This document shows positions 2,702-51,104 of a stretch of DNA of 64,000 nucleotides, piece by piece. Below the pieces are notes generated by a model. It saw only the letters and a list, made by a program, of their open reading frames with translations. It made no database searches and was not told where the DNA came from. Origin of the DNA: Candidatus Krumholzibacteriota bacterium (lineage in GTDB: Bacteria; Krumholzibacteriota; Krumholzibacteriia; LZORAL124-64-63); assembly GCA_022711765.1 (NCBI GenBank), contig JAKLEB010000002.1, positions 1,120,620 through 1,184,619 on the forward strand, given 5' to 3'. Both the position numbers and the translations under genes were made by a program. Each line of letters opens with the position of its first letter. The first letter of the stretch is position 1.

Positions 2702-5700
2702 CTACTTCACGAGCGCGAGTTTGTGCACCTTCACTTCGCCCGCGGCGCGGGTCTCGCAGAAGTACACGCCCGAGGGCACGGCGGCGCCCCGGTCGTCGGT
2801 CCCGTGCCAGGCGACCTCGTGGCGGCCGGTCGCGAGCCGCTCGTCGACGAGCGTCCGAACCAGCGCGCCGCGCAGGTCGAAGATCCGGACGCTCACGTCG
2901 CCGTCGCGCGGCAGGTCGAGCGCGATCGTGGTCGCGGGGTTGAACGGGTTCGGGTGGTGGCTCACGCGCAGGACAGCGTCCGGCGCGACGGCGATTGGCG
3001 GACCGAACCAGACGCTGAAGCGGGTCAGCACGTCGTCGAGGATGATCGTGCGCGCCGCCTTGCCGGCGGAGCCGGCCGGCGGCGTCCAGCCCGGCGCGTT
3101 GAGGAGATAGCGGAAGTCGACGGGCATCAGCACGACCTGTGCGTCCTCCGCGGCGTGGCAGGCGTAGACAGCAGCCGCGAACGGATAGACCCCGGGTTGT
3201 CCGTCCGGACCGGTGAACTCGGCCAGGCGGACCGCGGATCCGGCGCCCGTGATCGCGTCGAACGCGCTGCGGGAGGGACAGCCGCCGTAGGCGATCCACA
3301 CCGGTACGCTCGAGATCACGCCGTTACCGGCGATCGAGGCGACCCGCGGCGAGACCTGGTTGCCGATGAAGGTGGAGACATCCGGGCCGTGGTAGCTCAC
3401 GTCGAGGTATGTGCTCACGAACGCGGCGCCCTGAGCGCCCGCGTCGAGCAGCGCGGATACGAGGTGGTCGCCGGTCAGGAAGGCGCGCTTGCCGCCCTGG
3501 CCGAACCACTGGGTGAGGACCGCGAGGTCGTTCGACGGATCGTCGTAGAAGTCGCCGTTCCCCAGGACCGACAGCGCGAGGTCGCCCGCGGAGTAGAGCA
3601 GCACCCGGTAGCCGCTGAGGACCGCGGACGTGGCCCGGCCGCCCAGGCCGTTGCCGACGCCGGAGGTGGGGCTGCGCGTGGTGTAGAGGTCGTAGGAGAC
3701 GCCCGCCGTGAAGCCCAGGTTCCGCAGGGCGTGGTGCCAGTGGTTCTCGCCGGGTCCGGTGCCGAAGTCATTCCAGAAGAGGACCTCCGGCTGGTCGTCG
3801 GGCGCGGGTGAGACCATGGTCGGCAGGGCGCGCACGATGAAGTCGCTGTCGTAGAGGAGGTCGTGGTGGAAGCTCGCGAAGCCGGCGGTGTCGGCGGGCA
3901 GCAGCGCGAGACCGATCTCGCCGGCCTGATCGTCGCGGACCTCGAAGCGGTAGTGGAGCACGTCGCCGGGGTAGAAGAAGTCGCTGTCGGGCAGGTCGAA
4001 GTGCCAGCGGTCGGGCACCGGCTCGCCGGCGGCGTTGAAGGTCGAATCGCCGTCGACCCAGCCCGTGACGACGGCTCCGGTCTGGACCAATCCGGCCGGC
4101 AGTTCGCGGACCGCGTCGAAGAGCGAATTGGCCTTCATCCGCACGTGCATCTGCGGCGGCCCGGCGAGGACGGCGCCCGGGCGGATCGTGGTCGCGGTGA
4201 CGACGACCGAGTCGCCGGGGTCGTTGCGCAGGTGCGCGGCGGGGCTGATGTTGCCGGCCATGTCCAGGCGGACCGCGTTGCGCGCGAGGTCCGTCGGGTC
4301 GATCGCGCCGGCGGCGGGGAAGCCGTCGTTGAAGAGGTCGACGCTGCGGGCGGAGAGGCTGGGGCCGGCCGTCGTCCACGCGGTGACCCGGACATTGTCG
4401 AAGTAGGGGGCGGGGGTGCCGTCGTCGCCCTCCCACCAGCCCGGCGAATCGTCGATCACGAGCAGGGAGACCTGGACGTGCGTGGGATTCGGGACGAGCA
4501 GGTCGGAGATGACCTCGTGCTGGCGGAGGTACGCGGGGCTGCCGTAGTAGAGGAAGTACCGCGTTCGCCAGGAGGCGCCGGCGAGATCGGCGGGGTCGCC
4601 GGTGTTCACGGAGCGGACGTGCCATTGATAGACGATCCCCGGGGATTCGGGCGATAGCGTCTCGTGCCGGTACACGCCGAACTCGAAGGAGGCGGCGTCG
4701 GCGCCCGCCGGCCACGCCAGCACGGGGCTCGTGATCCGGTTGGCGAGATAGTAGGGGTCGCCGAGCAATCCGCCGGAATGGTTCACGATGTAGCCGCCCG
4801 GCCCGTAGCACCAGTTGATGCACGGCGTGCCGCCGGTGCCCGGGACGACCAGGCCGTCGTCGATGAACGCGACCTGGGCCGACGAATTCGACACGCAGGG
4901 GTCGAGATCGACCAGGTGGATCCAGAGAGCCGCGAAATCGCCGACCGCCTCGGCGACAGGCCGCCAGCGGTCGCTCACGCCGTCCTCGAAGTCCTCGTCA
5001 TCGACGACGCTGCCGTCGACGGTGACCGTCACGTCGTCGAGCTGGCAGGCGCCGTCGGTGTCCCAGAGGCCGTCCTCGTCCGACCAGGCGCCGTCGGAGG
5101 AGAATCGCACCCGCAGCTGCACCTCGTCGCCGCCCGGGCCGACCAGCTCGCCCGCCGCGAGGACGACGGTCTCGTCGACCAGGATCGTACACTCGCCGTC
5201 GTAGGACCGGAGCGACTCCCACGAGCCGCCGCGGTTCACCTGCAGGTACGTGTAGTCGTAGCGCGGCTCGGTGTCGTTGCGCAGGGTCGCCGTCCAGCGC
5301 ACGCTGACGGGGACGGACGGGTCGGCGACGGCGTGGCTGAAGACGAGGTTCTGGCGCCAGTCGTTGCCGTAGCCCGGATCGCCGTCCGGGAACACCGTAC
5401 CGCACCACATGGCGTTCTGGCCGTGGGGCGCCAGGAACGGGCTCACCTGCCAGTAGCTCGGCTGCTCCCAGAGGTCCTCGTGGGCCCAACCGTGCCAGGA
5501 CGGCTGGCCGCCGGCGTCCTCGAAGCGGCCGTCGAGGCGAGCGGGTCCGCCGAGCAGGTCCAGGGTGTCGACCTCGGCCCTGGCGCCGCCGGCGACGCCG
5601 CCGTGGCGGATGTCGCCGGGATCGGCGCGGACCCGAACCGGCGTGTCCGGCCCGCCGGCCGCGGACGCGCCGATGGACCAGAGGACGCAGAGACCGAGCC

Positions 5701-5719
5701 AGAACCAGCGTCTCGTCAT
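2702..5719 (-). CDS. Large secreted hypothetical protein (1005 aa) with a T9SS/FlgD-Ig-like C-terminal sorting domain
   Basis: ORF in the track. N-terminal signal peptide MTRRWFWLGLCVLWSIGASAAG. GGGAGGG ribosome-binding site upstream. C-terminus HPNPFNPATTIALDL...IFDLRGALVRTLV...GVYFCETRAAGEVKVHKLALVK matches the C-terminal domain shared by four other secreted proteins in the window. Confidence 0.7.
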   Translation of the reverse strand: MTRRWFWLGLCVLWSIGASAAGGPDTPVRVRADPGDIRHGGVAGGARAEVDTLDLLGGPARLDGRFEDAGGQPSWHGWAHEDLWEQPSYWQVSPFLAPHGQNAMWCGTVFPDGDPGYGNDWRQNLVFSHAVADPSVPVSVRWTATLRNDTEPRYDYTYLQVNRGGSWESLRSYDGECTILVDETVVLAAGELVGPGGDEVQLRVRFSSDGAWSDEDGLWDTDGACQLDDVTVTVDGSVVDDEDFEDGVSDRWRPVAEAVGDFAALWIHLVDLDPCVSNSSAQVAFIDDGLVVPGTGGTPCINWCYGPGGYIVNHSGGLLGDPYYLANRITSPVLAWPAGADAASFEFGVYRHETLSPESPGIVYQWHVRSVNTGDPADLAGASWRTRYFLYYGSPAYLRQHEVISDLLVPNPTHVQVSLLVIDDSPGWWEGDDGTPAPYFDNVRVTAWTTAGPSLSARSVDLFNDGFPAAGAIDPTDLARNAVRLDMAGNISPAAHLRNDPGDSVVVTATTIRPGAVLAGPPQMHVRMKANSLFDAVRELPAGLVQTGAVVTGWVDGDSTFNAAGEPVPDRWHFDLPDSDFFYPGDVLHYRFEVRDDQAGEIGLALLPADTAGFASFHHDLLYDSDFIVRALPTMVSPAPDDQPEVLFWNDFGTGPGENHWHHALRNLGFTAGVSYDLYTTRSPTSGVGNGLGGRATSAVLSGYRVLLYSAGDLALSVLGNGDFYDDPSNDLAVLTQWFGQGGKRAFLTGDHLVSALLDAGAQGAAFVSTYLDVSYHGPDVSTFIGNQVSPRVASIAGNGVISSVPVWIAYGGCPSRSAFDAITGAGSAVRLAEFTGPDGQPGVYPFAAAVYACHAAEDAQVVLMPVDFRYLLNAPGWTPPAGSAGKAARTIILDDVLTRFSVWFGPPIAVAPDAVLRVSHHPNPFNPATTIALDLPRDGDVSVRIFDLRGALVRTLVDERLATGRHEVAWHGTDDRGAAVPSGVYFCETRAAGEVKVHKLALVK

Positions 5720-8220: not shown

Positions 8221-9721
8221 GAGGCTCCTTGGCCACGGCCAGGGCCAGCACGTCGGCCTGGCTCGCGGCGCGGGGATCGGGGATCTCGCCGGCGAGGCGA
8301 CCCTCGTGCATCACGAGGATGCGGTCGGCCATGCCGAGCACTTCCGGCAGCTCGCTCGAGATCATCACGACGGCCTTGCCGCGGGCGGCGAGGTCGTTGA
8401 TCAGCTCGTAGATCTCGTACTTGGCGCCGACGTCGATGCCGCGCGTGGGCTCGTCGAAGATCACGACGCGGGCGTCGCGCTCGAGCCAGCGCGCGACGAG
8501 CAGCTTCTGCTGATTGCCGCCCGAGAGCTGGCCGGCGCGCTGGTCGGGGCCGGCGACCTTGATGCGCAGGCGCGCGACGTGGCCGGCGAAGCGGTCGGCC
8601 TCCGTCGTCCGGTCCAGCCAGCCGGCGCGTGACCAGCGGTCGAGGTTGCCGAGCGCGAAGTTCTCGCGGGCGCCGAGGCCGAGCACGAGACCCTGGCCCT
8701 TGCGGTCCTCGGTCAAGAGCGCGATGCCAGCCCGGATCGCGGCGCGCGGCGAGCCCGGCCGGACCGCGCGACCGTCGACGCGCACGGTGCCCGCGCGCGG
8801 GCGGTCGGCGCCGAACACGAGGCGCGCGAGGTCGGTGCGGCCCGCGCCCACGAGGCCGGCGAGGCCGAGCACCTCGCCGGCGCGGACGGTGAAGGTCACC
8901 GGCTTGACGCGGCCGCCGCACAGGCCGTCGACCGCGAGCACGACCTCGCCACGCACGGCCGCGCGCGGGGGGAACTCGCGATCGAGGGGTCGGCCCACCA
9001 TCAGCTCGATGAGCCGGCCGCGGTCCAGCGCGGAGGCGGCCCAGACGCCGAGCAGCTCGCCATCCCGCATCACGGCGATGCGGTCGGCGAGGCGCGCGAC
9101 CTCGTCGAGGCGGTGGCTGATGAACACGAGGCCCAGGCCCTGGGCCTTCAGCTCGCCGAGCACCGCGAACAGGCGCTCGGTCTCGCGGGGCGTGAGGGCC
9201 GCGGTGGGCTCGTCGAGGATCAGGACGCGGGCGTCGGCCAGCAGCGCGCGGGCGATCTCGACGAGCTGGCGGTGGGCGAGGTCGAGCTGGGCGACGGGCA
9301 CGTCGGGGTCGACGTCGCAGCCGAGACGGGCGAGGACCTCGCGAGCGCGCTGGCGTTCTGCGGCGCGGTTGAGCGGACGCAGGAGCCGCGGCTCGCGGCC
9401 GAGGAAGAGGTTGTCGCGCACGGTGAGGCCCGGGACCTGGCTCAGCTCCTGATAGATCACCGCCACGCCGGCGCGGGCCATTTGCGCCGGCGCAAATCCG
9501 GTGAGGTCGCGGCCGTCGATCTCGACCGTGCCCGCGTCCGGCGCGTGCGCGCCCGAGACGACCTTGATGAGCGTGCTCTTGCCCGCGCCGTTCTCGCCGA
9601 CGAGCGCGAGGACCTCGCCAGCGCGGACGTCGAGGTCGGCGCCCGCCACGGCGACCACGCCGGGGAACGTCTTGCGCACGCCGCGCAGGCTCAACAGCGG
9701 GGTGTCAACGGCCGGCGGCAT
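8210..9721 (-). CDS. Sugar ABC transporter ATP-binding protein (tandem NBDs, RbsA-like)
   Basis: ORF in the track, 503 aa. Two Walker A motifs (GENGAGKST; GLVGAGRT) and an LSGGNQQK signature. Confidence 0.8.
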   Translation of the reverse strand: MPPAVDTPLLSLRGVRKTFPGVVAVAGADLDVRAGEVLALVGENGAGKSTLIKVVSGAHAPDAGTVEIDGRDLTGFAPAQMARAGVAVIYQELSQVPGLTVRDNLFLGREPRLLRPLNRAAERQRAREVLARLGCDVDPDVPVAQLDLAHRQLVEIARALLADARVLILDEPTAALTPRETERLFAVLGELKAQGLGLVFISHRLDEVARLADRIAVMRDGELLGVWAASALDRGRLIELMVGRPLDREFPPRAAVRGEVVLAVDGLCGGRVKPVTFTVRAGEVLGLAGLVGAGRTDLARLVFGADRPRAGTVRVDGRAVRPGSPRAAIRAGIALLTEDRKGQGLVLGLGARENFALGNLDRWSRAGWLDRTTEADRFAGHVARLRIKVAGPDQRAGQLSGGNQQKLLVARWLERDARVVIFDEPTRGIDVGAKYEIYELINDLAARGKAVVMISSELPEVLGMADRILVMHEGRLAGEIPDPRAASQADVLALAVAKEPHGA

Positions 9722-10670
9722 CGTCGCCCGCGTAGAGCTGGCAGGGGATGAGCTGCTGCGGGGGCACGGACTGACCGCTGAGGTACGCGGCCACCGCCTC
9801 GATCGTCATGCGGCCGATCTCGCGCGGCTGCTGCACGACGTCGGCGTGGATCTTGCCGGCGTTGATCGCCGCGCGCGCCTCGGGCACCGCATCGAAGCCG
9901 ACGATCACGATCTGGCCGAGCTTGCCCGCCTTCTCGACCGCCGCCAGGGCGCCGAGGGCGCTGTCGTCGTTGATGCCGAAGATCGCGTCGAGACCCGGCT
10001 GCGATTGCAGGATGTCCTCGGCGGTGCGGAAGGCGATGTCCTTCGTGCCGCGGCCGGGCAGCTTGGCGACGATCGTGACGCCGGCGTGCTTCGCGAGCTC
10101 CTCCTCGAAGCCCGCCACGCGCTGGATCACCGACTCGACCTCGGGATGGTCGATGATCGCGACCTCGCCTGAACCGCCGATCGCCTCCACGAGCGCCTGG
10201 GCGGCGAGGCGGCCGCCAGCCACGTTGTCGCTCGCGGTGTGGCAGACGATCTGCGCGTTGTCGGCGAGGACTGCGATGTCCGCGGTGAACACCGGGATGC
10301 CCGCCGCGTTGGCCGCGGTGACCGAGGTGCCGATCGAACGCGAGTCGCAGGGGGAGAGCACGATCGCGTCGACCTTTCGCACGAGGAAGTTCTCGAGCTG
10401 GTCCTTCTGCTTCGCGACGTCGAACTCGCCCGCCTGGACGAGGAGCTGGTAGCCGCGCTCGTTGGCGGCCTGCTGCAGGCCGGCCTCGAGGTCCTGGTAG
10501 AAGGGGTGGGTGCGGGTGAGGAGGGAGACGCCGATCACGGCCGCGGGCGTACCGGGCGCGCGGGGGGTGTCGGCGGACTTGCCGGCGTCGCCGTTGCTGC
10601 TGCAGCCGGCTAGGGCGGTGAGTGCAATCGCGACGACGATTGCTGGTGCCGTGCGCATGGAAGATCGCAT
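9705..10670 (-). CDS. Sugar ABC transporter periplasmic substrate-binding lipoprotein (RbsB-like)
   Basis: ORF in the track, 321 aa. Lipoprotein signal ...ALAGCSSNG. Periplasmic-binding-protein type I fold. Overlaps the ATPase gene start. Confidence 0.75.
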   Translation of the reverse strand: MRSSMRTAPAIVVAIALTALAGCSSNGDAGKSADTPRAPGTPAAVIGVSLLTRTHPFYQDLEAGLQQAANERGYQLLVQAGEFDVAKQKDQLENFLVRKVDAIVLSPCDSRSIGTSVTAANAAGIPVFTADIAVLADNAQIVCHTASDNVAGGRLAAQALVEAIGGSGEVAIIDHPEVESVIQRVAGFEEELAKHAGVTIVAKLPGRGTKDIAFRTAEDILQSQPGLDAIFGINDDSALGALAAVEKAGKLGQIVIVGFDAVPEARAAINAGKIHADVVQQPREIGRMTIEAVAAYLSGQSVPPQQLIPCQLYAGDDAAGR

Positions 10671-10868
10671 CGGGGCCTCCTCGAAATATTACGGTCCGTT
10701 GGCGTCGAACCTAGCATGTCCCGCGAGGCTACTCAACCCGACACCTGAAACCGGGAGTCGCTCAACAGCAACTACACTAGGACCGGCCCGTTCACTTCCC
10801 TTTGGCGGGCGTCAGAGACGAAATCTCCATGTGGACGAGAGTACCTGCCACAGGGGGTGGACGGGCCG

Positions 10869-13474
10869 GTTGTGGGTAGCCTACGGACCCTGATCGGTTA
10901 CACTTTTCCGCCTGGTGTCCACGTCAGTCCTCCAGTTGTGGGTGGCCTACGGACCCTGATCGGTTACACTAGAGGCGCTACCGCGCCGAGTACGGCGAGG
11001 TTGTGGGTGGCCTACGGACCCTGATCGGTTACACTCGGGGGCGCTAGGCGCTGGTCGCCGTACCAGTTGTGGGTGGCCTACGGACCCTGATCGGTTACAC
11101 TGAACGGCCGTCTGCCGAATCAGCACATGCCGTTGTGGGTGGCCTACGGACCCTGATCGGCTACACTCTGACCGCCCCCACTGACACCCCCCAAAGGGTT
11201 GTGGGTGGCCTACGGACCCTGATCGGCTACACTTGTCTGAACAATACCACAATTGCCCAAAAAGTTGTGGGTGGCCTACGGACCCTGATCGGCTACACTC
11301 GTACACCACTTGCTCAATCGTTCTTGCCAGTTGTGGGTAGCCTACGGACCCTGATCGGCTACACTCAGAGTCGCCGCGTCGCTGAATCTCCCCTTGTTGT
11401 GGGTGGCCTACGGACCCTGATCGGCTACACTGCTCGCCGGAGGCTAGGACCGAGAATTGAGGTTGTGGGTGGCCTACGGACCCTGATCGGCCACACTTAT
11501 CACCAAGAAAAGGAGCAAGACGCGACAGTTGTGGGTGGCCTACGGACCCTGATCGGCTACACTGAATCGCTCGCGATACTGCGTGATGGGCTTGTTGTGG
11601 GTGGCCTACGGACCCTGATCGGCTACACTCCTTGGAGCTGATGCCTGGTGAGTCCGTATGTTGTGGGTGGCCTACGGACCCTGATCGGCTACACTCGGCC
11701 GGGCTCACCGTGCGTTTCACGCAGAGTTGTGGGTGGCCTACGGACCCTGATCGGCTACACTTCCGTCGCCTGCAGCGTATGAGGCGGCGCCGTTGTGGGT
11801 GGCCTACGGACCCTGATCGGCTACACTGGATGGTCGGACCGCCAGGTCGTCAAGGTTGTTGTGGGTGGCCTACGGACCCTGATCGGCTACACTGCCGGGG
11901 ACCTGATCCTCACGACCGAAGACGTTGTGGGTGGCCTACGGACCCTGATCGGCTACACTCGGCACGGTGCGGCTGTCGATCTGGCTGAAGTTGTGGGTGG
12001 CCTACGGACCCTGATCGGCTACACTTCGCCGTGCGTTTCTCGAGTAGAGACTTCTGTTGTGGGTGGCCTACGGACCCTGATCGGCTACACTATCGACGAG
12101 GTTCCCCCAGGCGGCGGGATAGTTGTGGGTGGCCTACGGACCCTGATCGGCTACACTGTCGGCCGCTTTGATGAGAATGTCCTGGTAGTTGTGGGTGGCC
12201 TACGGACCCTGATCGGCTACACTCCGCCGCCGCTCGGCCGCGAATCGGGGACTGTTGTGGGTGGCCTACGGACCCTGATCGGCTACACTGGGCGGCGCGG
12301 TGTTCATCTCGACGCCCGAGTTGTGGGTGGCCTACGGACCCTGATCGGCTACACTAGCAGATCCACACGACCACTGGCCTGATGAGTTGTGGGTGGCCTA
12401 CGGACCCTGATCGGCTACACTTGCGCCTGCTTTGCTGGCAGCCGCGCGCTGGTTGTGGGTGGCCTACGGACCCTGATCGGCTACACTTGACAGACCTCCT
12501 AGTCGTCGTGGCTGGTGTTGTGGGTGGCCTACGGACCCTGATCGGTTACACTTCGCACGATGATGCCCTGCGCCCGGCGAAGTTGTGGGTGGCCTACGGA
12601 CCCTGATCGGTTACACTATGCCTCCCTGCATGAGCACCGCGAGCCTGTTGTGGGTGGCCTACGGACCCTGATCGGTTACACTGGCCGTGGAGCTCGACCG
12701 CGTGGCACTCAAGTTGTGGGTGGCCTACGGACCCTGATCGGTTACACTCCTGGCCTCGACGCGGGTAACCCGGTCGCCGTTGTGGGTGGCCTACGGACCC
12801 TGATCGGTTACACTCGTCTACGCGAAATTCTGGACCCCAGGGCAGTTGTGGGTGGCCTACGGACCCTGATCGGTTACACTCGAAGTCGTGCCAGGCATTG
12901 GTGGCGGACAGTTGTGGGTGGCCTACGGACCCTGATCGGTTACACTGCAGCCATCCTCGTGGGTCCATCCAGGGCAGTTGTGGGTGGCCTACGGACCCTG
13001 ATCGGTTACACTTCAACGCGCGGCGGCGATATGCGTCGCGCAGTTGTGGGTGGCCTACGGACCCTGATCGGTTACACTTGTAATCGGAGACGTCAGAAAG
13101 GCTGGGAAGTTGTGGGTGGCCTACGGACCCTGATCGGTTACACTCCGCGGCGACCGAGGCCGTGATCACTCGCAGTTGTGGGTGGCCTACGGACCCTGAT
13201 CGGTTACACTCGCGCACGATCGCGACCGTGCGGTATGGGAGTTGTGGGTGGCCTACGGACCCTGATCGGTTACACTACTGCGCGAGTTCGCTAGCGAGCT
13301 CGGAGAGTTGTGGGTGGCCTACGGACCCTGATCGGTTACACTCAGGCCGATCGCTTCGAGCGGATGCTCACGGTTGTGGGTGGCCTACGGACCCTGATCG
13401 GTTACACTAGACGACAGCCAAAACCGAGAGCGGAGGACGTTGTGGGTGGCCTACGGACCCTGATCGGTTACACT
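10869..13474 (+). CRISPR. CRISPR array with 40 direct repeats of 36 bp and 39 spacers (35 of 30 nt, 4 of 29 nt); type II-C style
   Basis: Repeat consensus GTTGTGGGTGGCCTACGGACCCTGATCGG[T/C]TACACT. Repeats start at 10869, 10935, 11000, 11066 and then mostly every 66 bp up to 13439. There are three blocks of variants: R1-R4 GGTTACACT, R5-R25 GGCTACACT, R26-R40 GGTTACACT. R1 and R8 carry GGGTAGCC; R10 carries GGCCACACT. Strand assignment (plus, toward cas2) follows from the repeat 5'-GTTGTGG start typical of type II repeats, the -10-like TACACT at each repeat 3' end, and the plus-strand tracrRNA. Confidence 0.95.
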
Positions 13475-13475
13475 A

Positions 13476-13515
13476 CCTCCCTCTCAACCGGTTGGATTAC
13501 CACTGGTTGAGAGGG
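13476..13515. terminator. Long hairpin between the last repeat and the cas2 stop, a candidate bidirectional terminator
   Basis: CCCTCTCAACC GGTTGGATTACCACT GGTTGAGAGGG: an 11-bp perfect outer stem plus an inner TGG/CCA stem. Sits 1 nt after repeat 40 and 9 nt from the cas2 stop. No U-tract. Confidence 0.4.
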
Positions 13516-13523
13516 ATCCAGGG

Positions 13524-13853
13524 TCAGAAAAGCTGGATCTGCGAGGGCTGGGATTCTGGTTTCGTCGCGGTTCTGCTGAGGTAGCATTCCATTCTCGCGT
13601 ATTGCTTGTCGGTGAATTTCAGGATCCGCACCTGCCCGTTTGGTGGCATGATGGATTTTACTCGCCCGACGTGGACAGCGGCGTTCTCGTCGCTCGGGCA
13701 CGGTCTCGAATACACCGAGTATTGTAGCATGTCGAACCCGTCCTGGATCAGGGATTTCCGGAATTCCGTCGCAGCCTTGCGCTGAGGCTTCGTGATCACG
13801 GGTAGATCGAACATCACCAGTACCCACATGGCTCTCATCCCGCTCAGTTTCAC
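13524..13853 (-). CDS. cas2: CRISPR-associated endoribonuclease Cas2
   Basis: ORF in the track, 109 aa. N-terminus MKLSGMRAMWVLVMFDLPV resembles the type II Cas2 N-terminus (MSYRYMRMILMFDMP). ATGA overlap with the cas1 stop. Confidence 0.85.
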   Translation of the reverse strand: MKLSGMRAMWVLVMFDLPVITKPQRKAATEFRKSLIQDGFDMLQYSVYSRPCPSDENAAVHVGRVKSIMPPNGQVRILKFTDKQYARMECYLSRTATKPESQPSQIQLF

Positions 13854-14782
13854 GACGGCTGGATCTCCGGTAGTTGGAGTTCCTTCGCCGCGACCGGTGC
13901 CGAGGCTCCGTTCTTGACCTGTTCCTCGATCGCGTGCGCGAGGGAACTTGCGGTCGACTCCAGGGCAACGGCGAGCGAGGTGCTTTCTCCCAGGATGGAT
14001 ACCTCGCGATAGAGCACCCCGATCAACCCCTGCTTGACGTCTTTGTCGATCTCCAGCCTGCCTTGGACCGCGAACTCGCGAACGACCGAGTCGACGACGG
14101 GCCTATACGGCTCCATGACATCGTCGGCGAGGCAGAATCCGCTGTATCTGTTCCGGTGGTGAAGCCCGATCACCGGCTGCAGGCCGGCCATGCAGAGTGC
14201 TCGTGCTGTCGCCGCGCGGAGGACCGCGTAACCGTAGTTCAACAGGTTGTTGGGCGGTGCTCCTTCGCGATGTCGCCGGAACGGATGCTTGGTGATGGCG
14301 GCGCATTCTCGAAACACGAGGGGCCAGTAGATCCGGGAGGCCTGACTCTCGTGAGCGCCGATGTTGCCACTGCGGGTCGTTTCAGCCAGCCTACGTAACG
14401 GGACCGCATCATCGCCCCGCAGCAGAGCCGCCTGGTTGGCGATCTTCGCTCCGACGATCCTAGCCCAGAGGTTCTTCTTGAGAGGCGCCGACATCTCCGA
14501 CTGCAGGCGCACTCGTTCACTGTGCAGAGAGTGCACGTCGAGCGGGATGAACATGCCGCACGGGTGAAACGTCTCGTCGCAGGCGAGGATCGCGCCACCG
14601 GTCTTGCCGAGCGCTGCCATGACGCCGGACGAGATCGAGATCCCGGTCGACTCCAGGACGATGAGACCGAGATCCTCGGCGGGGATGTCCGCGAGAGTCT
14701 CGTCATCACGAGTGATCGTGATCCTGGTATTGCGGAGCGCCAATTGCGTGCCGCGCGTAGCGACCGAGATCGTGCGTTTCAT
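13850..14782 (-). CDS. cas1: CRISPR-associated endonuclease Cas1 (type II)
   Basis: ORF 13850..14806. Start moved to the ATG at 14782 (MKRTISVATRG...), which has a GGAGG ribosome-binding site 6 nt upstream; the 14806 ATG has none. Cas1 fold, adjacent to cas2 and cas9. Confidence 0.85.
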   Translation of the reverse strand: MKRTISVATRGTQLALRNTRITITRDDETLADIPAEDLGLIVLESTGISISSGVMAALGKTGGAILACDETFHPCGMFIPLDVHSLHSERVRLQSEMSAPLKKNLWARIVGAKIANQAALLRGDDAVPLRRLAETTRSGNIGAHESQASRIYWPLVFRECAAITKHPFRRHREGAPPNNLLNYGYAVLRAATARALCMAGLQPVIGLHHRNRYSGFCLADDVMEPYRPVVDSVVREFAVQGRLEIDKDVKQGLIGVLYREVSILGESTSLAVALESTASSLAHAIEEQVKNGASAPVAAKELQLPEIQPS

Positions 14783-14832
14783 GAGGCCTCCAGCCCCTGG
14801 CCCCATGAAGATCGACGCCGGTATTGCCGACT

Positions 14833-17800
14833 TTAATCCCTGGCCTGTCGAATCCTACCGATCGGGTCCACCTGGACCTTCGTAATTGAGTGCTTGCGCC
14901 AGTCTACGAAAGAAGAAATACGTCGGAATGGCTGCTTGTTTCCATGAGTGGCCGGTCGACTGTCTCGACAATCACGAATTGTGATATCGAACCGGCTAGA
15001 GGGTGTTGGCTCGCCGGTTAATTTCTGGACTACTCCTATGATACGTTCTCCCGTGACGGGGTTTACGATCCAGACCGACTCTTTCCGCGCCAGCGACATC
15101 ACGAACACCTTCCCCCCTCCGTGATCTCGATTTACCGCGGGAAGCCCCTGTCGACGGACCCGATCGGCCGCAGCCATGGTCGAGACTGCAGTAGCCCACA
15201 TGGCCCTGGGTGCGCCCTGGTCGTCGGTCTCTGCGGAGGCGACGATCTCGAGATGATGGTTGTTGCCCAGGATCGCGAACCGGTGTTTCAGCTGACGCGC
15301 GTTCTTGATGGCGACCTCGATCCTGACTTTCCGAATCGGGATGCCGTTCGCCATGAGGATCGGCTCGGCGTGCCAATTCTTGGGCAGCGTGTTGCTCTGG
15401 CCATCCCAGCCATGGATGCGCAAGCGATCCTCGATCAAGCGACGACACGTGTCATCGCGGATCGTGGCGATGTTCGACCCAGTGAGCGTATCGAGCCGTT
15501 TTCGCGTGACGTAGCGGTCAGCAGCGATCTCGCCGTCACGATTGCGGGCAGGCCCATAGAAGGTCTCTTCGTGGAACGCGCCGCTGATCTTCCGCAGGGC
15601 TCGGTGTGAGACCGTTATGCGCGACGCGAGGTCGCGCGCCGTATCGCGTAACGTGTCCCAAGGAACCGGGAACGGGGGCCGGCCCGGCTCTGGGTGGTGA
15701 TCGCGAGATTTCCAGTAATCCTGATATCTCTTTAGAAGCGCTCGCGAGGAGAGGGCGATCACCAAGGCGTCGATCGCGTGGTGTCGGTGGTCATCACGAG
15801 ACTTGTAGGGTTTTCCATCGTCGTCGACGCGATCCGAAAGGAGCGGTTCACCCTTGGCGTCGTACAGGTCCGGCAGGATGTTGTTCAAGCCCCACTGTCG
15901 CCTCAATTCGGCGGTCAAGCCGCCGCGGCACGACTGGATGGCCTTTTCGCCAGTGCGCAACTCCGGCGGGAAGAGCAATGACAAGTACTCCACGACGGCT
16001 CGCGTGAGATAACGCGTATCGTTGAGCTGGCGGGCCGCGAAATCCTCGGTGTCGAGTTCGGCGCGTTTGAGGCGTTCGAACTTTCCACGTGAAAGCGCAC
16101 CGGAGTGCTGCAGGCCGGCTGCCCGCCGCAGGAGTTGACGGAAAGCCTCGGAACTCTCGCCGAGCCACTCCATCGGCGTCCTGTCGCCCTTCTCCTTGTT
16201 GGCGAGTCGATGGACGAGCACCTTGTTCGCCTGCGAGTCGTCGAGACTGCGCCACCGCGGTAGGATGTGGTCGATCTCCCACTCGCCGCCCGCGAACAAT
16301 TCGGAAACAGGGATCGGCTGGCCGGTATAGAGGCAGTGCCGCCCCTGTTCCTCCCAGATCAGCCACCGATTCACGTCATCGCGACTTCGCGGGTTGCCGC
16401 CAAACTCGGCCACACGGCTCGCCGCCTCTTCGCGCACCCGTTCCCGGTCCCTGAGCGTCTTGGCCTCTTCGCGTCGCCGTTCCGCGCCGTCCTTCATATC
16501 CCGGGCGAGCTCGACGACGATCCTGGCCGGGCAACCGTGTTCTCGGATCAGCGCATTCACGACCTTGCGTACTTCGACCAATGCGCGACGAACGACGGGG
16601 TTCGTGAGATTCTCGAGATCGGTCGGCAGATCGCTCGACGACAACGGCGGCAGCGTCGCGAAACGCGAACTCCCGGGCCGTTGCGGGTAGGCTTTCTGGA
16701 TCGCCTCGAATTCGTCCAACCCGTCGGCGAGGAGCGGCATCAACTTCCGAATCGCTTCGAGCGAATAGCCCAGATAGCCGTCGGCCGGGGTCCACCGGAC
16801 GAGTTTCTCGATCGATTCCGGTTCGACACCGAGGCCTTGCAGAACAGCGATGAGGTCTGTCGGATCATCCGCCTGGACGAGGTGGTCGCGCAAACGCTGT
16901 CGCGTTTGCTCGGCGACCTTTCGCCAGGCCGGGCGGCCAACCGTGGTCGCGAGCTTGTGTTCCACGGAGTTGCCGAGCAACGCCGACCGCCCGCCGCGCT
17001 CCAGGTTGAACTGTGCGTCGGGGTCGACGCCGGTCTTGGCCAGGGCTTTGCGGATGTCGTCGAATTTCACGCGGTCCTTCGACATGAGAAGATCGAGAAC
17101 GACCTGTCGCTCGCCCGCGGTGAGCACCCGCTCGCGCCCGAGGTGCTCACTCACGCGGAGGTTCGCAGTCTCCTTGTGGATGCGAAACTGTTGGGCCTCC
17201 CAGAGCCCTCGCGGGCAGCAGTACTGGCCGGGCTCCAACGGGCATAATCGTACCGACGGCGCGCGATGCAGATTGGCGCGTGATGGCGCGGCCAACCGCC
17301 TCTCTTCCGTCACCTCGAACGGGTGCTGGAAGAAGATCGTGTGACGCAACCGCGACACGAGTGGAGCGGATAGCAGATCCGGATGGCACGTCTGCTGGCG
17401 GGCGACGATCGCTTCGAACTCGGCAAGGTACATGTCTCGCCGCGTGTGGCGATTTCGCAGCCGCGGCTGGTCGACAGGACCGGTGCCTCGTGCGAGGGTG
17501 TGGAGGTACTCACCGAGGGATCGGCAGCCAGAATCCTTGATCGCACGTTCGAGCACGCCGATCTCCTCGAGGATCCCCTCATCCTCTTTCGCCTTCCCAC
17601 TCTTGCGGTTGGACTGGAAGCCCCGGCGCTGGCCAAGGTGGAAAACTGCGCGACCGATCTCGTACGGCTCGAGATCTTCCGTCAACGCGCGTGCACGCAG
17701 TTCGTACGGATCGCTTCGAAAAAGGTCTTCGAGCAACTTGTCATCGACAGGCAGAAGCCCGCCTTCTCGCAACTGCGCCTTCAGGCGGTTACGACGGGCA

Positions 17801-18042
17801 TTCCGCCGCGCGTGGTTCCGCCGCATGCATCTCGCAGTCCGCCGAGACTGGTTGAGAGACATCTCCTTCGCGGTCCCGAAATTGTGCAATCCCGCCTCGA
17901 ATACCCGGACGCCCAAGGGGGGATGGCCAGCACTGTCGGTGTCGGCGAAACCTACAGGCTCAAACGAATTCGGGTTGGCTTCGAGCATCGCCCAACCGAC
18001 GGAGTTCGGCCCGAGATCAAGCCCGAGGATGTACGCTTTCAT
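14833..18042 (-). CDS. cas9: Cas9 (type II-C, 1069 aa)
   Basis: ORF in the track. RuvC-I ILGLDLGPNSVGWAML. Arginine-rich bridge helix RRTARCMRRNHARRNARRNRLK. HNH EIDHILPRWRSLDDSQANKVLV. RuvC-III HHAIDALVIA. GGGGAGGA ribosome-binding site 8 nt upstream of the ATG. Compact size and cas9-cas1-cas2 with no csn2 or cas4 fit type II-C. Confidence 0.95.
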   Translation of the reverse strand: MKAYILGLDLGPNSVGWAMLEANPNSFEPVGFADTDSAGHPPLGVRVFEAGLHNFGTAKEMSLNQSRRTARCMRRNHARRNARRNRLKAQLREGGLLPVDDKLLEDLFRSDPYELRARALTEDLEPYEIGRAVFHLGQRRGFQSNRKSGKAKEDEGILEEIGVLERAIKDSGCRSLGEYLHTLARGTGPVDQPRLRNRHTRRDMYLAEFEAIVARQQTCHPDLLSAPLVSRLRHTIFFQHPFEVTEERRLAAPSRANLHRAPSVRLCPLEPGQYCCPRGLWEAQQFRIHKETANLRVSEHLGRERVLTAGERQVVLDLLMSKDRVKFDDIRKALAKTGVDPDAQFNLERGGRSALLGNSVEHKLATTVGRPAWRKVAEQTRQRLRDHLVQADDPTDLIAVLQGLGVEPESIEKLVRWTPADGYLGYSLEAIRKLMPLLADGLDEFEAIQKAYPQRPGSSRFATLPPLSSSDLPTDLENLTNPVVRRALVEVRKVVNALIREHGCPARIVVELARDMKDGAERRREEAKTLRDRERVREEAASRVAEFGGNPRSRDDVNRWLIWEEQGRHCLYTGQPIPVSELFAGGEWEIDHILPRWRSLDDSQANKVLVHRLANKEKGDRTPMEWLGESSEAFRQLLRRAAGLQHSGALSRGKFERLKRAELDTEDFAARQLNDTRYLTRAVVEYLSLLFPPELRTGEKAIQSCRGGLTAELRRQWGLNNILPDLYDAKGEPLLSDRVDDDGKPYKSRDDHRHHAIDALVIALSSRALLKRYQDYWKSRDHHPEPGRPPFPVPWDTLRDTARDLASRITVSHRALRKISGAFHEETFYGPARNRDGEIAADRYVTRKRLDTLTGSNIATIRDDTCRRLIEDRLRIHGWDGQSNTLPKNWHAEPILMANGIPIRKVRIEVAIKNARQLKHRFAILGNNHHLEIVASAETDDQGAPRAMWATAVSTMAAADRVRRQGLPAVNRDHGGGKVFVMSLARKESVWIVNPVTGERIIGVVQKLTGEPTPSSRFDITIRDCRDSRPATHGNKQPFRRISSFVDWRKHSITKVQVDPIGRIRQARD

Positions 18043-18098
18043 TTGGATGATCCTCCCCAGAAGTCACCGATCGGCCCCAACTCAAGCAGCATACTATC

Positions 18099-18127
18099 TT
18101 GACAATGCGAAATCCAGCCCCTAAGCT
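18099..18127 (+). promoter_or_regulatory. Sigma70-like promoter of the predicted tracrRNA
   Basis: -35 TTGACA (18099-18104), 17-nt spacer, -10 TAAGCT (18122-18127). The predicted transcription start at ~18134 coincides with the first base of the anti-repeat. Confidence 0.55.
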
Positions 18128-18133
18128 GTCACC

Positions 18134-18230
18134 AGTGTAACCGATCAGGGTCTGTGGTCCCATCCATACCAAGGACTCAGATCCGCAGGCTCTGCGGCTC
18201 GGCTTCGGCCGAGCCGCAACCGTTTCCGGG
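18134..18230 (+). ncRNA. tracrRNA: Predicted tracrRNA, divergent from cas9
   Basis: 18134-18152 AGTGTAACCGATCAGGGTC is a 19/19 match to the reverse complement of the repeat 3' half (T-type). Complementarity to the repeat 5' half continues imperfectly, with G-U wobbles, through ~18170. Two GC hairpins follow: CCGCAG-GCT-CTGCGG at 18183-18197, and GCTCGGC-TTCG-GCCGAGC (UUCG tetraloop) at 18197-18214. Lies in the 200-bp gap between the GH92 stop and the cas9 start. Confidence 0.65.
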
Positions 18231-18244
18231 AGGTCCGCACCGCG

Positions 18245-20611
18245 CTACCGCGACATCGAGTACGGCGCCGCCGCGTCGCCTGTCGCCCGCCCCCGATCCG
18301 CCTCCGCACCCATCACGAACCGCAACGTTCCGCCCCGCGCGACCTCCTCGTGCGTGATCCAGTTCCGCTCGAGCGCGACGCCATTCAACGAGACTTCCCG
18401 CACGTACATGTTCGCCGCCCCCTGGTTCTCCGCGACCACCGTGAACGTCCGCCCGCCCGGAAGCGCGATCTCCGCCCGCCGCACGCACGGGCTGCCGAGC
18501 ACGTACTGGTCGCTCCCCGGCGCCACGGGGTAGAAGCCGAGTGCGCTGAAGATGTACCACGCCGACATCTGCCCGCAGTCGTCGTTGCCGCATAGCCCGT
18601 CCGGCGCCGGCCGGTACATCGTGTCCAGGATCTCGCGCACCCGCGCCTGCGTCCGCCACGGCCGCTCGATGAACGCGTCGAGGTACGGCACGTGGTGGCT
18701 CGGCTCGTTGCCGTGGACGTAGTTGCCGATCATCCCCGCGCGCGTGATGTCCTCGTTCGCGGCGAAGGTCTCGTCCGCGACCTGCATCACGAACAGCGTG
18801 TCGAGCCAGGCGGCGAGGCGCTCGCGGCCGCCGATCAGCTCTGCGAAGCCGGCCACATCGTGCGGCACATACAGCGAGTAGTTCCAGGCGTTGCCCTCGA
18901 TGTAGCCCTGGCCGTGCGTGTCGAGCGGATCGAACCCCGCGGGGAACGACCCGTCGGCGTTGCGCGCGCGCAGGAAGCCGCTCGACGGATCCCACAGCGC
19001 GCGCCACGACCCGGCGCGGCGATCGTACTCCGCCGCCACGTCGGCGCGCCCCAGCGACTCCGCCATCCGCGCGATCGTCCAGTCGTCGAACGCGTACTCG
19101 AGGGTCTGCGAGGCCGCGTAGCGGCTGCTGTCGGCCGGCACCCAGCCGAGGCGGCGGTACGCGCCGAGGCCGTCGTAGCGGTCGTAGGTGGCGCTCGCCA
19201 GCATCGCGTCGAGCGCCTCCGCGGGGTCGAAGCCGCGCACGCCCTTGACCCAGGCGTCCGCGATCACCGGCACCGCGTGGTAGCCGATCATGCACCAGTT
19301 CTCGGCGCCGTGATGGGACCACACCGGCAGGATGCCGTGCACGCTCTCGCGCCGGTGGGCGAGCATCGACTGCACGAAGTCGCCCGTGCGGGCCGGTTGC
19401 AGGAGCGTGAGCAACGGGTGCAACGCGCGGTAGGTGTCCCACAGCGAGAAGATCGTGTGGTTCGTATAGCCCTCGGCGCGGTGCACGTTCTGGTCGAGGC
19501 CGCGGTACTGGCCATCGACATCGCTCCAGACGACCGGGCCCAGGTGACAGTGGTAGAGCGCGGTGTAGAAGTTGACGAGGCCCGCGGGGTCGGCCTCGAC
19601 CACGATCGCGCCGAGCGCCCGGTCCCAGGCCGCGGCGGTCCGCCGGCGCGCGCCGTCGAAGTCCCAGCCGGGGGCCTCGGCGGCGAGGTTCGCGAGCGCG
19701 CCCGCCGTGCTCGTGCCAGAGAGCGCTACCTTCACGAGGATCTGCTCGCCGGCCTCGGTCGCGAAGTCGAAATGGCATTTCACGCGCCGGCCGGCGCGCT
19801 CCGGGAATCCGCGGTCCTCGTCGAACTTGCGCCAGAAGCCGCGGTAGACGATCGGCTCCTCGTTGCGTAGGCCGAAGGACGCAACCGGCTTGCTGAACGC
19901 GATCGCGAAGTAGAGCGTGCGCGTCCGCGCCCAGCCGCTCGTCTGCCGCGAGCCGGTGAGCAACGTGTCGTTCTCCATGCGCACGTACGACCACACGGTC
20001 TTGCCGGGGTAGTCGTAGATGTTCGACGTGAGGTCGAGGATCAGGTGAGCCTCGTCGGTGGCCGGGAACGTGTAGCGGTGCAGGCCGACCCGCTCGGTCG
20101 CCGTCAGCTCGGCCTCGATGTCGTGGTCGAGCAGCGTGACGCGATAGTAGCCGGGACTCGCCGACTCCTGCGCGTGCGAGAAGCGCGAGCGGTAGCCGAG
20201 GTCGGGCTGCGCGGCGGGGCCCGGTTCGAGCACGAGGTCGCCGATCGTGGGGGCGATGAGCAGGTCGCCGAGGTCGCTGTGGCCGGTGCCGTTGAAGTGG
20301 GTGTGGGCGAACCCCACGATCGTCGAGTCGCCGTACTGGTAGCCGCTGCAGTACCGGTACGCGGCCGCGTTGTAGCCCTCGCCGAGGCTGTAGGGTACGA
20401 TGTCGGTCTCCGGGCTGAGCTGCACGAGCCCGAACGGCGCCGTGGCGCCGGGATACGTGTGGCCCATCTCGGCGGTCCCGATGAACGGATCGACGAGGTC
20501 GCGCGGCGCCGGCGCCGGCTCCTCGGCGAACGCGATCGCGGCAGCCAGGCCGAGCGCGGTGATGAGCGAGGAACGTCCACCCCGGCGCCGACCGTTCGCG
20601 GGTCCGTGCAT
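18245..20611 (-). CDS. GH92 family alpha-1,2-mannosidase (secreted)
   Basis: ORF in the track, 788 aa. Signal peptide. GH92 hallmark GNEPSHHVPYL. Confidence 0.85.
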   Translation of the reverse strand: MHGPANGRRRGGRSSLITALGLAAAIAFAEEPAPAPRDLVDPFIGTAEMGHTYPGATAPFGLVQLSPETDIVPYSLGEGYNAAAYRYCSGYQYGDSTIVGFAHTHFNGTGHSDLGDLLIAPTIGDLVLEPGPAAQPDLGYRSRFSHAQESASPGYYRVTLLDHDIEAELTATERVGLHRYTFPATDEAHLILDLTSNIYDYPGKTVWSYVRMENDTLLTGSRQTSGWARTRTLYFAIAFSKPVASFGLRNEEPIVYRGFWRKFDEDRGFPERAGRRVKCHFDFATEAGEQILVKVALSGTSTAGALANLAAEAPGWDFDGARRRTAAAWDRALGAIVVEADPAGLVNFYTALYHCHLGPVVWSDVDGQYRGLDQNVHRAEGYTNHTIFSLWDTYRALHPLLTLLQPARTGDFVQSMLAHRRESVHGILPVWSHHGAENWCMIGYHAVPVIADAWVKGVRGFDPAEALDAMLASATYDRYDGLGAYRRLGWVPADSSRYAASQTLEYAFDDWTIARMAESLGRADVAAEYDRRAGSWRALWDPSSGFLRARNADGSFPAGFDPLDTHGQGYIEGNAWNYSLYVPHDVAGFAELIGGRERLAAWLDTLFVMQVADETFAANEDITRAGMIGNYVHGNEPSHHVPYLDAFIERPWRTQARVREILDTMYRPAPDGLCGNDDCGQMSAWYIFSALGFYPVAPGSDQYVLGSPCVRRAEIALPGGRTFTVVAENQGAANMYVREVSLNGVALERNWITHEEVARGGTLRFVMGAEADRGRATGDAAAPYSMSR

Positions 20612-42956: not shown

Positions 42957-43076
42957 GCGAGTCGATCTGCCGCGTCTGGTCCGGCGCCCGCTGACCGGCC
43001 GGGCGGGGAGCGTCAGCCGTCACCCCTGACCCCGCTCTGGCTGCTTCCTGTCGCCACCAACCGAGGAGTGTTGCGA

Positions 43077-50974: not shown

Positions 50975-51104
50975 AGGTCACCCGCAGTTTTTTCGCGAAA
51001 GTCGTTTCCGCCATTGCCGATCTATAGGTCGGAGCCTGCGGCCCGCGGATGCCGTCCGCGACGCCGCCGGCGCCGTGATCGGCCCATGGTCAAAAGAGGC
51101 GACG

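Follow-up and report, generated by a model that had tools for sequence, protein, structure and literature searches.

[quoted passage not shown] The components of this system follow the order cas9-cas1-cas2-array without a fourth cas gene, and its effector, Nme1Cas9 (PDB 6JDQ, 6JDV), has ~1070-1080 aa. The arrays of N. meningitidis and Campylobacter jejuni have been documented to be transcribed in the direction opposite to their cas operon (PMC3737331), as are the characterised II-C arrays (PMC12080349, PMC3737331). In C. jejuni (Dugar et al., summarised in PMC12080349), each repeat has its own promoter, new spacers are added at the repeat that is transcribed last, and the oldest repeat is the first one, an 'extra' copy that is often mutated within its first 15 nt. 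Compact Cas9s of similar length are also found in the II-C systems of Geobacillus, namely GeoCas9 and ThermoCas9 (PDB 8JTR, 8UZA, 9AR4).

A locus with the same gene order as in N. meningitidis and no fourth cas gene was analysed in a 64-kb window (the whole stretch of DNA under study), and it is very probably a complete type II-C CRISPR-Cas9 locus for adaptive immunity, located on the chromosome of an uncultured Candidatus Krumholzibacteria bacterium and probably functional. An array of 40 repeats, cas9, cas1, cas2 and an anti-repeat were all found intact, which bears out the preliminary description of a complete type II system, and the array with its 39 spacers adjoins the adaptation genes cas1 and cas2. 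The distance between cas9 and cas1 is 26 nt, cas1 and cas2 either overlap or lie ~20 nt apart, and cas2 is separated from the array by 49 nt. Since the gaps inside the locus do not exceed 50 nt and the flanking genes encode a sugar ABC-transporter binding protein (9705-10670) and a GH92 glycosidase (18245-20611), neither csn2 (II-A) nor cas4 (II-B) is present in the locus. This gene content and the nearest solved Cas9 structures, all from II-C systems, agree with the subtype first proposed. The locus is conventional, and all observations are consistent with the textbook II-C model.

The locus belongs to a Candidatus Krumholzibacteria MAG obtained from a JGI metagenome, and its host is a high-GC bacterium in contrast to the proteobacterial host of Nme1Cas9. 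The phylum Krumholzibacteria is usually assigned to the FCB superphylum, whereas the taxonomy copy consulted places it directly under Bacteria. An uncultured host of the FCB group, as originally suggested, was near the mark: Candidatus Krumholzibacteria MAGs at NCBI contain the identical Cas9 as well as a housekeeping helicase of the window.

The cas9 gene (14833-18042, minus strand) is an uninterrupted ORF encoding 1069 aa, which matches the profile TIGR01865 end to end (residues 4-1063, 598 bits) and the Pfam families RuvC_III, HNH_4 and Cas9_a. These profile searches, which had been recommended for Cas9 in the preliminary description, also recovered type II models for Cas1 and Cas2. The effector is a single protein with a split RuvC domain, an inserted HNH domain and a bridge helix; RuvC-I (LGLDLG, with D9), RuvC-II (IVVELAR), RuvC-III (HRHHAIDA), HNH (EIDHILP...NKVLV, with D591, H592 and N615) and the Arg-rich helix (residues 66-84) are all intact, as had been read from the sequence earlier. 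Residues D9, E511, D591/H592, N615 and H755/D758 are invariant in 32 Cas9 orthologues, and the enzyme would be a candidate for PAM-dependent double-strand cleavage of its targets.

Judged from the best named sequence matches and fold matches, the protein groups with II-C rather than II-A or II-B Cas9s. The top sequence match among solved structures is 21dz_A, for which no protein name is given, and the best named ones are Nme1Cas9, HpaCas9, ThermoCas9 and GeoCas9, the closest solved structures, with identities of 22-24%. The same four proteins are the nearest folds to an AF2 model (pLDDT 80.7), with E-values of ~1e-50 to 1e-43, while the II-A St1 and Sau Cas9s and SpCas9 score far below them. 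Nme1Cas9 is the best structural match, with an identity of only ~24% over the structural alignment. GeoCas9 and ThermoCas9 match with E-values of ~1e-62 to 1e-66 by sequence and ~1e-43 to 1e-48 by fold, but they share only 22-23% identity and come from another phylum, and thermostability of the present enzyme is unsupported. CjeCas9, a much smaller protein, matches only distantly. Because the sequence match to Nme1Cas9 ends at about residue 720-830, its WED/PI domain and PAM are not transferable to this protein, whose C-terminal WED/PI region (~residues 830-1069) matches no solved Cas9 in sequence. The PAM of the clade could be an undescribed one; the PI domain is without a detectable sequence relative among solved structures.

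The identical 1069-aa Cas9 is found on six contigs and under three NCBI accessions, where it is annotated as Cas9. Already present in public databases under this annotation, the protein may be a new enzyme but is no surprise biologically: one more compact Cas9 orthologue (1069 aa), from a little-studied candidate phylum. Its orthologues, none of them characterised, occur in Candidatus Krumholzibacteriia and Planctomycetota MAGs (P0001, P0003-P0033, P0056, P0068). The closest (P0001) is 86% identical; about ten metagenomic orthologues share 60-66% identity, two of which are named as Krumholzibacteriia MAGs by NCBI, and the planctomycete orthologues share 36-45%. These MAG orthologues have similar lengths (1053-1084 aa in P0001-P0032) and the same locus layout, tracrRNA promoter and scaffold, but their repeats and anti-repeats vary by co-varying substitutions and their neighbourhoods are not syntenic. 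A scan of genome contigs found two related loci only, and a metagenome scan mostly distant relatives of 30-40% identity. An 866-aa 'truncated Cas9' (P0002) was recognised as a gene-calling artefact and not a genuine truncation.

Downstream of cas9 on the minus strand, cas1 (13850-14806) encodes a type II Cas1 of 318 aa from ATG 14806 or 310 aa from ATG 14782, the latter, preceded by GGAGG, being more likely. It matches TIGR03639 cas1_NMENI (218 bits) and PADLOC Cas1_II (285 bits). The cas2 gene (13524-13853, minus strand) matches TIGR01573 and PADLOC Cas2_II (151 bits) and encodes 109 aa from GTG 13853 or 101 aa from ATG 13829. The translational coupling of cas1 and cas2 claimed earlier is uncertain and hangs on the start codon chosen: from GTG 13853, cas2 has a 4-nt overlap with the cas1 stop (GTGA, 13853-13850), whereas from ATG 13829, the start of the JGI gene caller, it has its own purine-rich stretch, the canonical Cas2 N-terminus MWVLVMFDLP and a 20-nt gap to cas1.

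On the plus strand, opposite to and divergent from cas9, a tracrRNA of ~94 nt is predicted at ~18134-18227 (112.9 bits); this position upstream of cas9 differs from that in N. meningitidis. It starts with the anti-repeat (18134-18169), 92 nt upstream of the cas9 ATG, where 30 of 36 positions can pair with the repeat compared with at most 27 elsewhere in the 64 kb outside the array; the site proposed at the outset is therefore the best repeat-complementary one. A nexus-like element follows (18170-18184, CAAGGACUCAGAUCC), then GCAGGCUCUG, a GC hairpin (18194-18217) and a tail, AACCGUUU, in which the RNA ends without a classic U-tract. This 3' part, GCUCUG-[hairpin]-A(A/U)C(C/G)GUUU, presumably resembles that of the Nme tracrRNA. 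The anti-repeat-nexus-hairpin module stands upstream of, and antisense to, cas9 in all close relatives, and a covariance model located it at the same position in 41 related loci. Compensatory changes were present at 16 of the 16 scaffold pairs, 97% of the scaffold alignment cells are paired (44-51% with the partners slid), and the anti-repeat co-varies with its own repeat locus by locus. The predicted repeat:anti-repeat duplex has an energy of -58.5 kcal/mol, and the fold of an sgRNA-like fusion reaches -87 kcal/mol (z = -11). Thus, a predicted RNA with both an anti-repeat and a structured scaffold accompanies the effector, and a confidently delimited tracrRNA and a ready sgRNA design would allow screens of the Cas9 for its PAM and for editing activity. 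Searched against Rfam, the whole window (at gathering thresholds) and the surroundings of the tracrRNA and of the array end (by E-value) gave chance-level matches only. When the tracrRNA was folded alone by RNAalifold, the anti-repeat paired with the nexus via a palindromic GATC, an artefact that arises when the crRNA is missing as a partner; the scaffold structure used comprised the nexus and terminal helices only.

The candidate tracrRNA promoter (18099-18127, plus strand) consists of TTGACA (18099-18104), a 17-nt spacer and TAAGCT (18122-18127), 6 nt before the first base of the anti-repeat. TTGAC, a spacer of 17-18 nt and a -10 box starting with TA, placed 6-7 nt before the anti-repeat, were found in all 12 close loci, and in 11 of them the -10 box reads TAnnnT. 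Back to back with it lies a putative cas9 promoter, whose -10 element (TAGTATGCT, 18088-18096, minus strand) was read from aligned upstream regions. Most close relatives have an extended -10 (TGnTAnnnT) on the cas9 side with TTGnnn 17 nt upstream; in the present locus and its 86% relative this promoter appears weaker than in the other relatives. A generic sigma-70 scan of 10500-18400 called no promoter-like site, the tracrRNA and cas9 promoters included, so the calls depend on conservation across loci. Overlapping promoters of this kind could couple the transcription of cas9 and tracrRNA in the clade.

The array (10869-13474) contains exactly 40 copies of a 36-nt repeat by fuzzy repeat search, reading GTTGTGGGTGGCCTACGGACCCTGATCGGTTACACT on the plus strand, and the same array was detected by Tandem Repeats Finder with a period of 66. 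All 39 spacers are unique; the repeat number and length given in the preliminary description hold, but its uniform 30-nt spacers do not, as 35 spacers have 30 nt and four have 29 nt. Like those of N. meningitidis, the repeats start with GTTGT and end in a -10-like box, here TACACT (TAnnnT), which has no -35 element and, unlike the Nme repeat promoter, no TG extension. At position 30 of the repeat, copies 5-25 have C and all the others (1-4 and 26-40) have T, and the C30 of these 21 repeats (of 40) mismatches A7 of the tracrRNA. The repeat at the cas2-distal end (10869-10904, plus strand) carries G10A, and its predicted duplex with the tracrRNA is weaker for this reason, at -52.7 instead of -58.5 kcal/mol; relatives likewise have a degenerate repeat at the cas-distal end. 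It fits the II-C pattern in which a mutated 'extra' repeat at that end is the oldest (PMC12080349), as in the C. jejuni model, and the newest spacers probably adjoin cas2. The C. jejuni array also has a Rho-independent terminator upstream, for which there is no clear counterpart here within ~150 nt of the 10869 end. A terminator scan of 10500-18400 found none inside the locus and a single terminator-like site just outside the array (10693-10711).

A search for protospacers of the spacers had been proposed as a route to the PAM, and no PAM could be derived in this way. By blastn, the whole array had only matches of E >= 0.2 in 50,697 phage and 72,556 plasmid records, exact 24-nt searches of IMG/VR with spacers 39, 38, 37, 36, 34, 6, 10 and 7 gave none, and no match with up to six mismatches, hence no self-target in the window, was present in the rest of the 64 kb or the relative loci fetched. 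The lack of a protospacer in these searches would also suit a silent or decaying locus that only looks complete by sequence, an island gained by horizontal transfer that lost its immunity or took on a non-defence role, and so would its GC content (61-64% throughout, against 70-75% in the flanks), the weak cas9 promoter elements and the tracrRNA mismatch in half of the repeats. Decay does occur in the clade, since in one relative (L087) cas1 is truncated and both cas2 and the array are missing, and another (L086) has IS66 genes within its array. Such a state is nevertheless very unlikely here: the three ORFs are intact with conserved catalytic residues, a long array whose 39 spacers are all unique implies that acquisition was sustained, the tracrRNA is intact together with its promoter and the hairpin, several assemblies gave an identical sequence, and missing protospacers are expected for an uncultured lineage. 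A functional immune locus remains the preferred reading.

As to the strand from which this immune locus is read, the tracrRNA lies opposite to cas9, which argues that the crRNAs come from the plus strand and that array and cas operon are transcribed convergently. In seven of seven loci, G-U wobbles give the strand antisense to cas9 a repeat:anti-repeat duplex that is 8-15 kcal/mol more stable than that of the other strand. Both tracrRNA orientation and wobble energetics thus support the plus strand as the crRNA strand, on which the repeat would be GUUGUGGGUGGCCUACGGACCCUGAUCGGUUACACU. The same system in the conventional orientation, with array and tracrRNA on the cas9 strand, a crRNA repeat of AGUGUAACCGAUC..., a tracrRNA that stops at the anti-repeat or reads into cas9, and a classical leader in the cas2-proximal flank, would bring a 19-nt perfect match to the then spacer-proximal repeat end, would put the acquisition end beside cas2, the usual site of classical leaders, and is what default CRISPR tools presume (PMC3737331); it is highly improbable, because the anti-repeat would be followed not by a scaffold but by the cas9 promoter and 5' UTR, the wobbles would turn into costly A-C mismatches, a hairpin variant in one relative (L002) forms a G-U pair only on the antisense strand, the conserved TTGACA-N17-TAnnnT promoter faces the other way in every close locus, and characterised II-C arrays run against their cas genes.

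In the preferred reading, the cas9-cas1-cas2 operon lies on the minus strand, and the tracrRNA would be transcribed divergently from its sigma-70-type promoter directly upstream of cas9. crRNAs would be transcribed from the plus strand towards cas2. On the model of Neisseria and Campylobacter, their transcription would probably start from the -10-like TACACT in which each repeat ends, and such repeat-internal starts would give guides of ~23-24 nt. Repeat and anti-repeat would form a 33-bp duplex with one internal loop, and Cas9 with this dual RNA would cut PAM-flanked DNA at its RuvC and HNH sites. Cas1 and Cas2 would insert new spacers at the cas2-proximal repeat, which would make the mutated repeat at 10869 the oldest. 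A Neisseria/Campylobacter-style II-C layout, with an opposite-read array, a mutated oldest repeat and a divergent tracrRNA, would accordingly reach Krumholzibacteria and Planctomycetota.

A GC-rich hairpin (13479-13515, no strand assigned; CCCTCTCAACCGGT...ACTGGTTGAGAGGG) separates the stop codon of cas2 from the newest repeat and may insulate or terminate the two convergent transcription units. Abutting the acquisition-end repeat, it might represent a II-C 'leader' or insulator. That the Krumholzibacteria/Planctomycetota Cas9 clade combines an undescribed PAM, a coupled cas9/tracrRNA promoter pair and a leader- or insulator-like hairpin is, as a joint proposal, speculative and rather unlikely. 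The sequence of the hairpin differs among relatives while its structure is kept, with a two-sided change in at least one relative for 9 of its 12 pairs.

The window locus is a real type II-C CRISPR-Cas system, complete and of canonical make-up. Its cas9 gene (14833-18042, minus strand) is an open reading frame of 1069 aa without internal stops, and cas1 (13850-14806) and cas2 (13524-13853) lie on the same strand. By profile search, TIGR01865 (the NCBIfam Cas9 equivalog) covers the window Cas9 end to end with 598 bits, and further domain matches were found to Pfam RuvC_III, HNH_4 and Cas9_a; Cas1 and Cas2 match TIGR03639 (a type II model) and TIGR01573, respectively, and PADLOC called the three proteins Cas9, Cas1_II and Cas2_II. 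The motifs LGLDLG, IVVELAR, EIDHILP...NKVLV and HRHHAIDA are present together with an arginine-rich bridge helix, and the key catalytic residues show little or no variation when 32 orthologues are aligned. The intact RuvC-I/II/III, HNH and bridge helix elements reported in the preliminary description were borne out.

The subtype had been derived from the lack of csn2 and cas4, and this assignment stands. The gaps are 26 nt between cas9 and cas1 and 49 nt between cas2 and the array, while cas1 and cas2 overlap or are about 20 nt apart; neither these gaps nor the space between the flanking genes (a GH92 glycosidase on one side and a sugar ABC-transporter binding protein on the other) leaves room for a fourth cas gene. 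In addition, the best solved-structure matches are II-C enzymes. The phmmer matches to Nme and Geo-type Cas9s reached E values of about 1e-62 to 1e-66, whereas the II-A side scored far weaker (St1 and Sau Cas9 at 1e-35 to 1e-37, SpCas9 at 1e-19), and Foldseek with an AlphaFold model (pLDDT 80.7) placed Nme1Cas9, HpaCas9, ThermoCas9 and GeoCas9 at the top with 22-24% identity. The phmmer alignment to solved Cas9s ends at about residue 720-830, and the WED/PI region is therefore too divergent for PAM transfer. The proposed spacer search did not supply a PAM either: the whole array gave nothing better than chance-level matches against isolate phages and plasmids, eight spacers used as exact 24-mers had no match in IMG/VR, and no PAM could be inferred from protospacer flanks in these searches.

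Translational coupling of cas1 and cas2, as originally proposed, holds only if cas2 starts with the GTG at 13853, which is required for the 4-nt overlap; the alternative ATG at 13829, also picked by the JGI gene caller, yields a canonical Cas2 N-terminus and removes the coupling. For cas1, the ATG at 14782, preceded by GGAGG, is the more likely start.

The array (10869-13474) consists of exactly 40 copies of a 36-nt repeat, GTTGTGGGTGGCCTACGGACCCTGATCGGTTACACT on the plus strand, as determined by fuzzy search with the repeat, and Tandem Repeats Finder recovered the same array with a period of 66 nt. The reported number and length of repeats are therefore correct, but the spacers are not uniformly 30 nt long (35 of the 39 are, and four have 29 nt). 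All of them differ from one another, and with up to 6 mismatches allowed, neither the rest of the window nor any fetched locus gave a match. A G10A change in the repeat that comes first on the plus strand (10869-10904) lowers the predicted stability of its pairing with the tracrRNA by about 6 kcal/mol; the degenerate repeat is cas-distal in relatives as well. It has been reported that in II-C systems each repeat contains its own promoter, that new spacers are inserted at the last repeat along the direction of transcription, and that the first repeat is the oldest, "extra" repeat, mutated in approximately 60% of systems and mostly within its first 15 nt (PMC12080349). The repeat ends at its 3' side with TACACT (TAnnnT). 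Were this hexamer to act as a -10 box in the manner of Neisseria and Campylobacter, transcription would begin about 7 nt into each spacer and guides would be 23-24 nt long.

Outside the array, complementarity to the repeat is highest at 18134-18169, a site that precedes the cas9 ATG by 92 nt, in agreement with the anti-repeat previously placed upstream of cas9. Read on the plus strand, antisense to cas9, it is AGUGUAACCGAUCAGGGUCUGUGGUCCCAUCCAUAC, and on its 3' side follow CAAGGACUCAGAUCC (nexus-like), GCAGGCUCUG, a 10-bp GC hairpin with a UUCG loop, and AACCGUUU. Among the collected loci, which encode Cas9 relatives of 54-86% identity, this module always occupies the same place and strand. 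All 12 close loci have TTGAC(A/G/T/C), a spacer of 17-18 nt and a -10 box beginning with TA (TAnnnT in 11 of them), which lies 6-7 nt from the first base of the anti-repeat. In the window, the predicted promoter comprises TTGACA (18099-18104) and TAAGCT (18122-18127) on the plus strand. Because its -10 box fits just three of six consensus positions, this site was missed by a generic promoter scan, and the prediction therefore rests on conservation across loci.

In 41 of the 88 sources searched, down to about 33% Cas9 identity, a covariance model of the scaffold matched on the strand antisense to cas9 and upstream of that gene. Compensatory changes were observed in 16 of 16 scaffold pairs, with 97% of cells paired versus 44-51% with slid partners and none of 500 shuffles reaching the observed values, in an alignment that was fitted to the model and thus somewhat favours the structure; five compensated pairs were already evident in a hand-made alignment of 12 sequences. 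The anti-repeat also co-varies with the repeat of its own locus (CCG, CTG or TCG at the same positions). Wherever an array is present (7 of 7 loci), pairing of repeat and anti-repeat is favoured by 8-15 kcal/mol on the strand antisense to cas9, since several G-U wobbles turn into A-C mismatches on the other strand. Fusing repeat, GAAA and tracrRNA gave the expected sgRNA-like fold (-87 kcal/mol, z = -11), and the corresponding design is 5'-N23-24-GUUGUGGGUGGCCUACGGACCC-GAAA-GGGUCUGUGGUCCCAUCCAUACCAAGGACUCAGAUCCGCAGGCUCUGCGGCUCGGCUUCGGCCGAGCCGCAACCGUUU-3'. We conclude that the tracrRNA gene points away from cas9 and that the plus strand most likely encodes the crRNAs, in convergent orientation to the cas operon. 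The predicted encoding of both RNAs opposite the cas genes is an addition to the preliminary description. Upstream of one distant cas9 relative (locus L012), two adjacent model matches (1509-1585 and 1612-1712) may represent a tandem duplication of the scaffold.

Within 18088-18133, the predicted plus-strand promoter of the tracrRNA is interleaved back to back with a putative minus-strand promoter of cas9. The pattern in relatives is TTGnnn-N17-TGnTAnnnT on the minus strand; 2-5 nt separate the putative cas9 -10 from the -35 of the tracrRNA promoter, whose spacer and -10 region are overlapped by the cas9 -35. These cas9 elements are weaker in the window and in the related locus L002 (TG is replaced by AG, and the -35 is poorer). 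Such an arrangement could possibly couple transcription of cas9 and tracrRNA. At the other end of the operon, a hairpin of 10-14 bp is found 3-5 nt away from the repeat next to cas2, presumably the newest one, in every relative (window 13479-13515 and equivalent positions in L002, L004, L008, L085, L086, L088 and L089). Its structure is kept while its sequence differs, and neither strand has a U-tract. Possible roles are to insulate the convergent cas and crRNA transcripts from each other in both directions, or to serve as a leader-like element when II-C spacers are integrated.

Copies 1-4 and 26-40 of the repeat have T at position 30, and copies 5-25 have C, which is mismatched to A7 of the tracrRNA. 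The C-to-T block boundary coincides exactly with three of the four spacers of 29 nt (numbers 25-27), a pattern pointing to an earlier recombination event between arrays, to an acquisition-end repeat that mutated twice in succession, or to strain variants joined in a chimeric assembly. The array of L086, a 63%-identical relative found in a Krumholzibacteriia MAG, is split by 2.5 kb: IS66-family genes (transposase, TnpB_IS66 and HTH_Tnp_1) lie inside it at 10259-12515.

The window locus is identical over 14.6 kb, except for one base, to contig Ga0116154_10000002 of JGI metagenome 3300009776 (L001); the sole difference is at position 11636, inside spacer 12. The 866-aa "Cas9" of the JGI record is a gene-calling artefact of high GC: the gene was cut because a spurious 239-aa antisense ORF (window 17383-18102, plus strand; L001 5332-6051) was called over its 5' end, while the ORF is uninterrupted over its full length and has 1069 aa in the NCBI annotation. 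The full-length protein is present in NCBI as HOX25474.1, HPD72513.1 and HRY40555.1, named 'type II CRISPR RNA-guided endonuclease Cas9 [Candidatus Krumholzibacteria bacterium]', and a DEAD-box helicase encoded in the window has a 100% identical counterpart in those same MAGs. The enzyme is thus already correctly annotated but uncharacterised, and a full-text literature search found no papers on Cas9 from this phylum. The interest of the locus is practical rather than conceptual, as one more compact Cas9 for screening.

GC content is 61-64% across the locus (10001-18000) versus 70-75% in both flanks, and the neighbourhoods of the relatives' loci are unrelated, which together suggest a horizontally acquired island. 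In a 62%-identical relative (L087, 8264-9439), cas1 is truncated (253 aa) and followed by neither cas2 nor an array, while the cas9 and tracrRNA module is intact; this locus may be decaying or adaptation-less.

The remainder of the window is ordinary chromosome, including CysRS, MeaB, photolyase, transporters, hybrid histidine kinases and secreted proteins with FlgD_ig tails. Two hybrid sensor kinases (34874-38431 and 51075-55304, both plus strand) combine Reg_prop beta-propellers, Y_Y_Y, HisKA/HATPase and receiver domains, an architecture typical of polysaccharide-utilisation regulators in Bacteroidota, and share the window with GH92 glycosidase and sugar-transporter genes. Three large secreted-type proteins (2702-5719, minus; 26527-30483 and 43068-46043, plus), one of them an S8 subtilase, end in a FlgD_ig domain; the same tail occurs in neighbours of related loci and may be a C-terminal domain for sorting or anchoring that is typical of the lineage.
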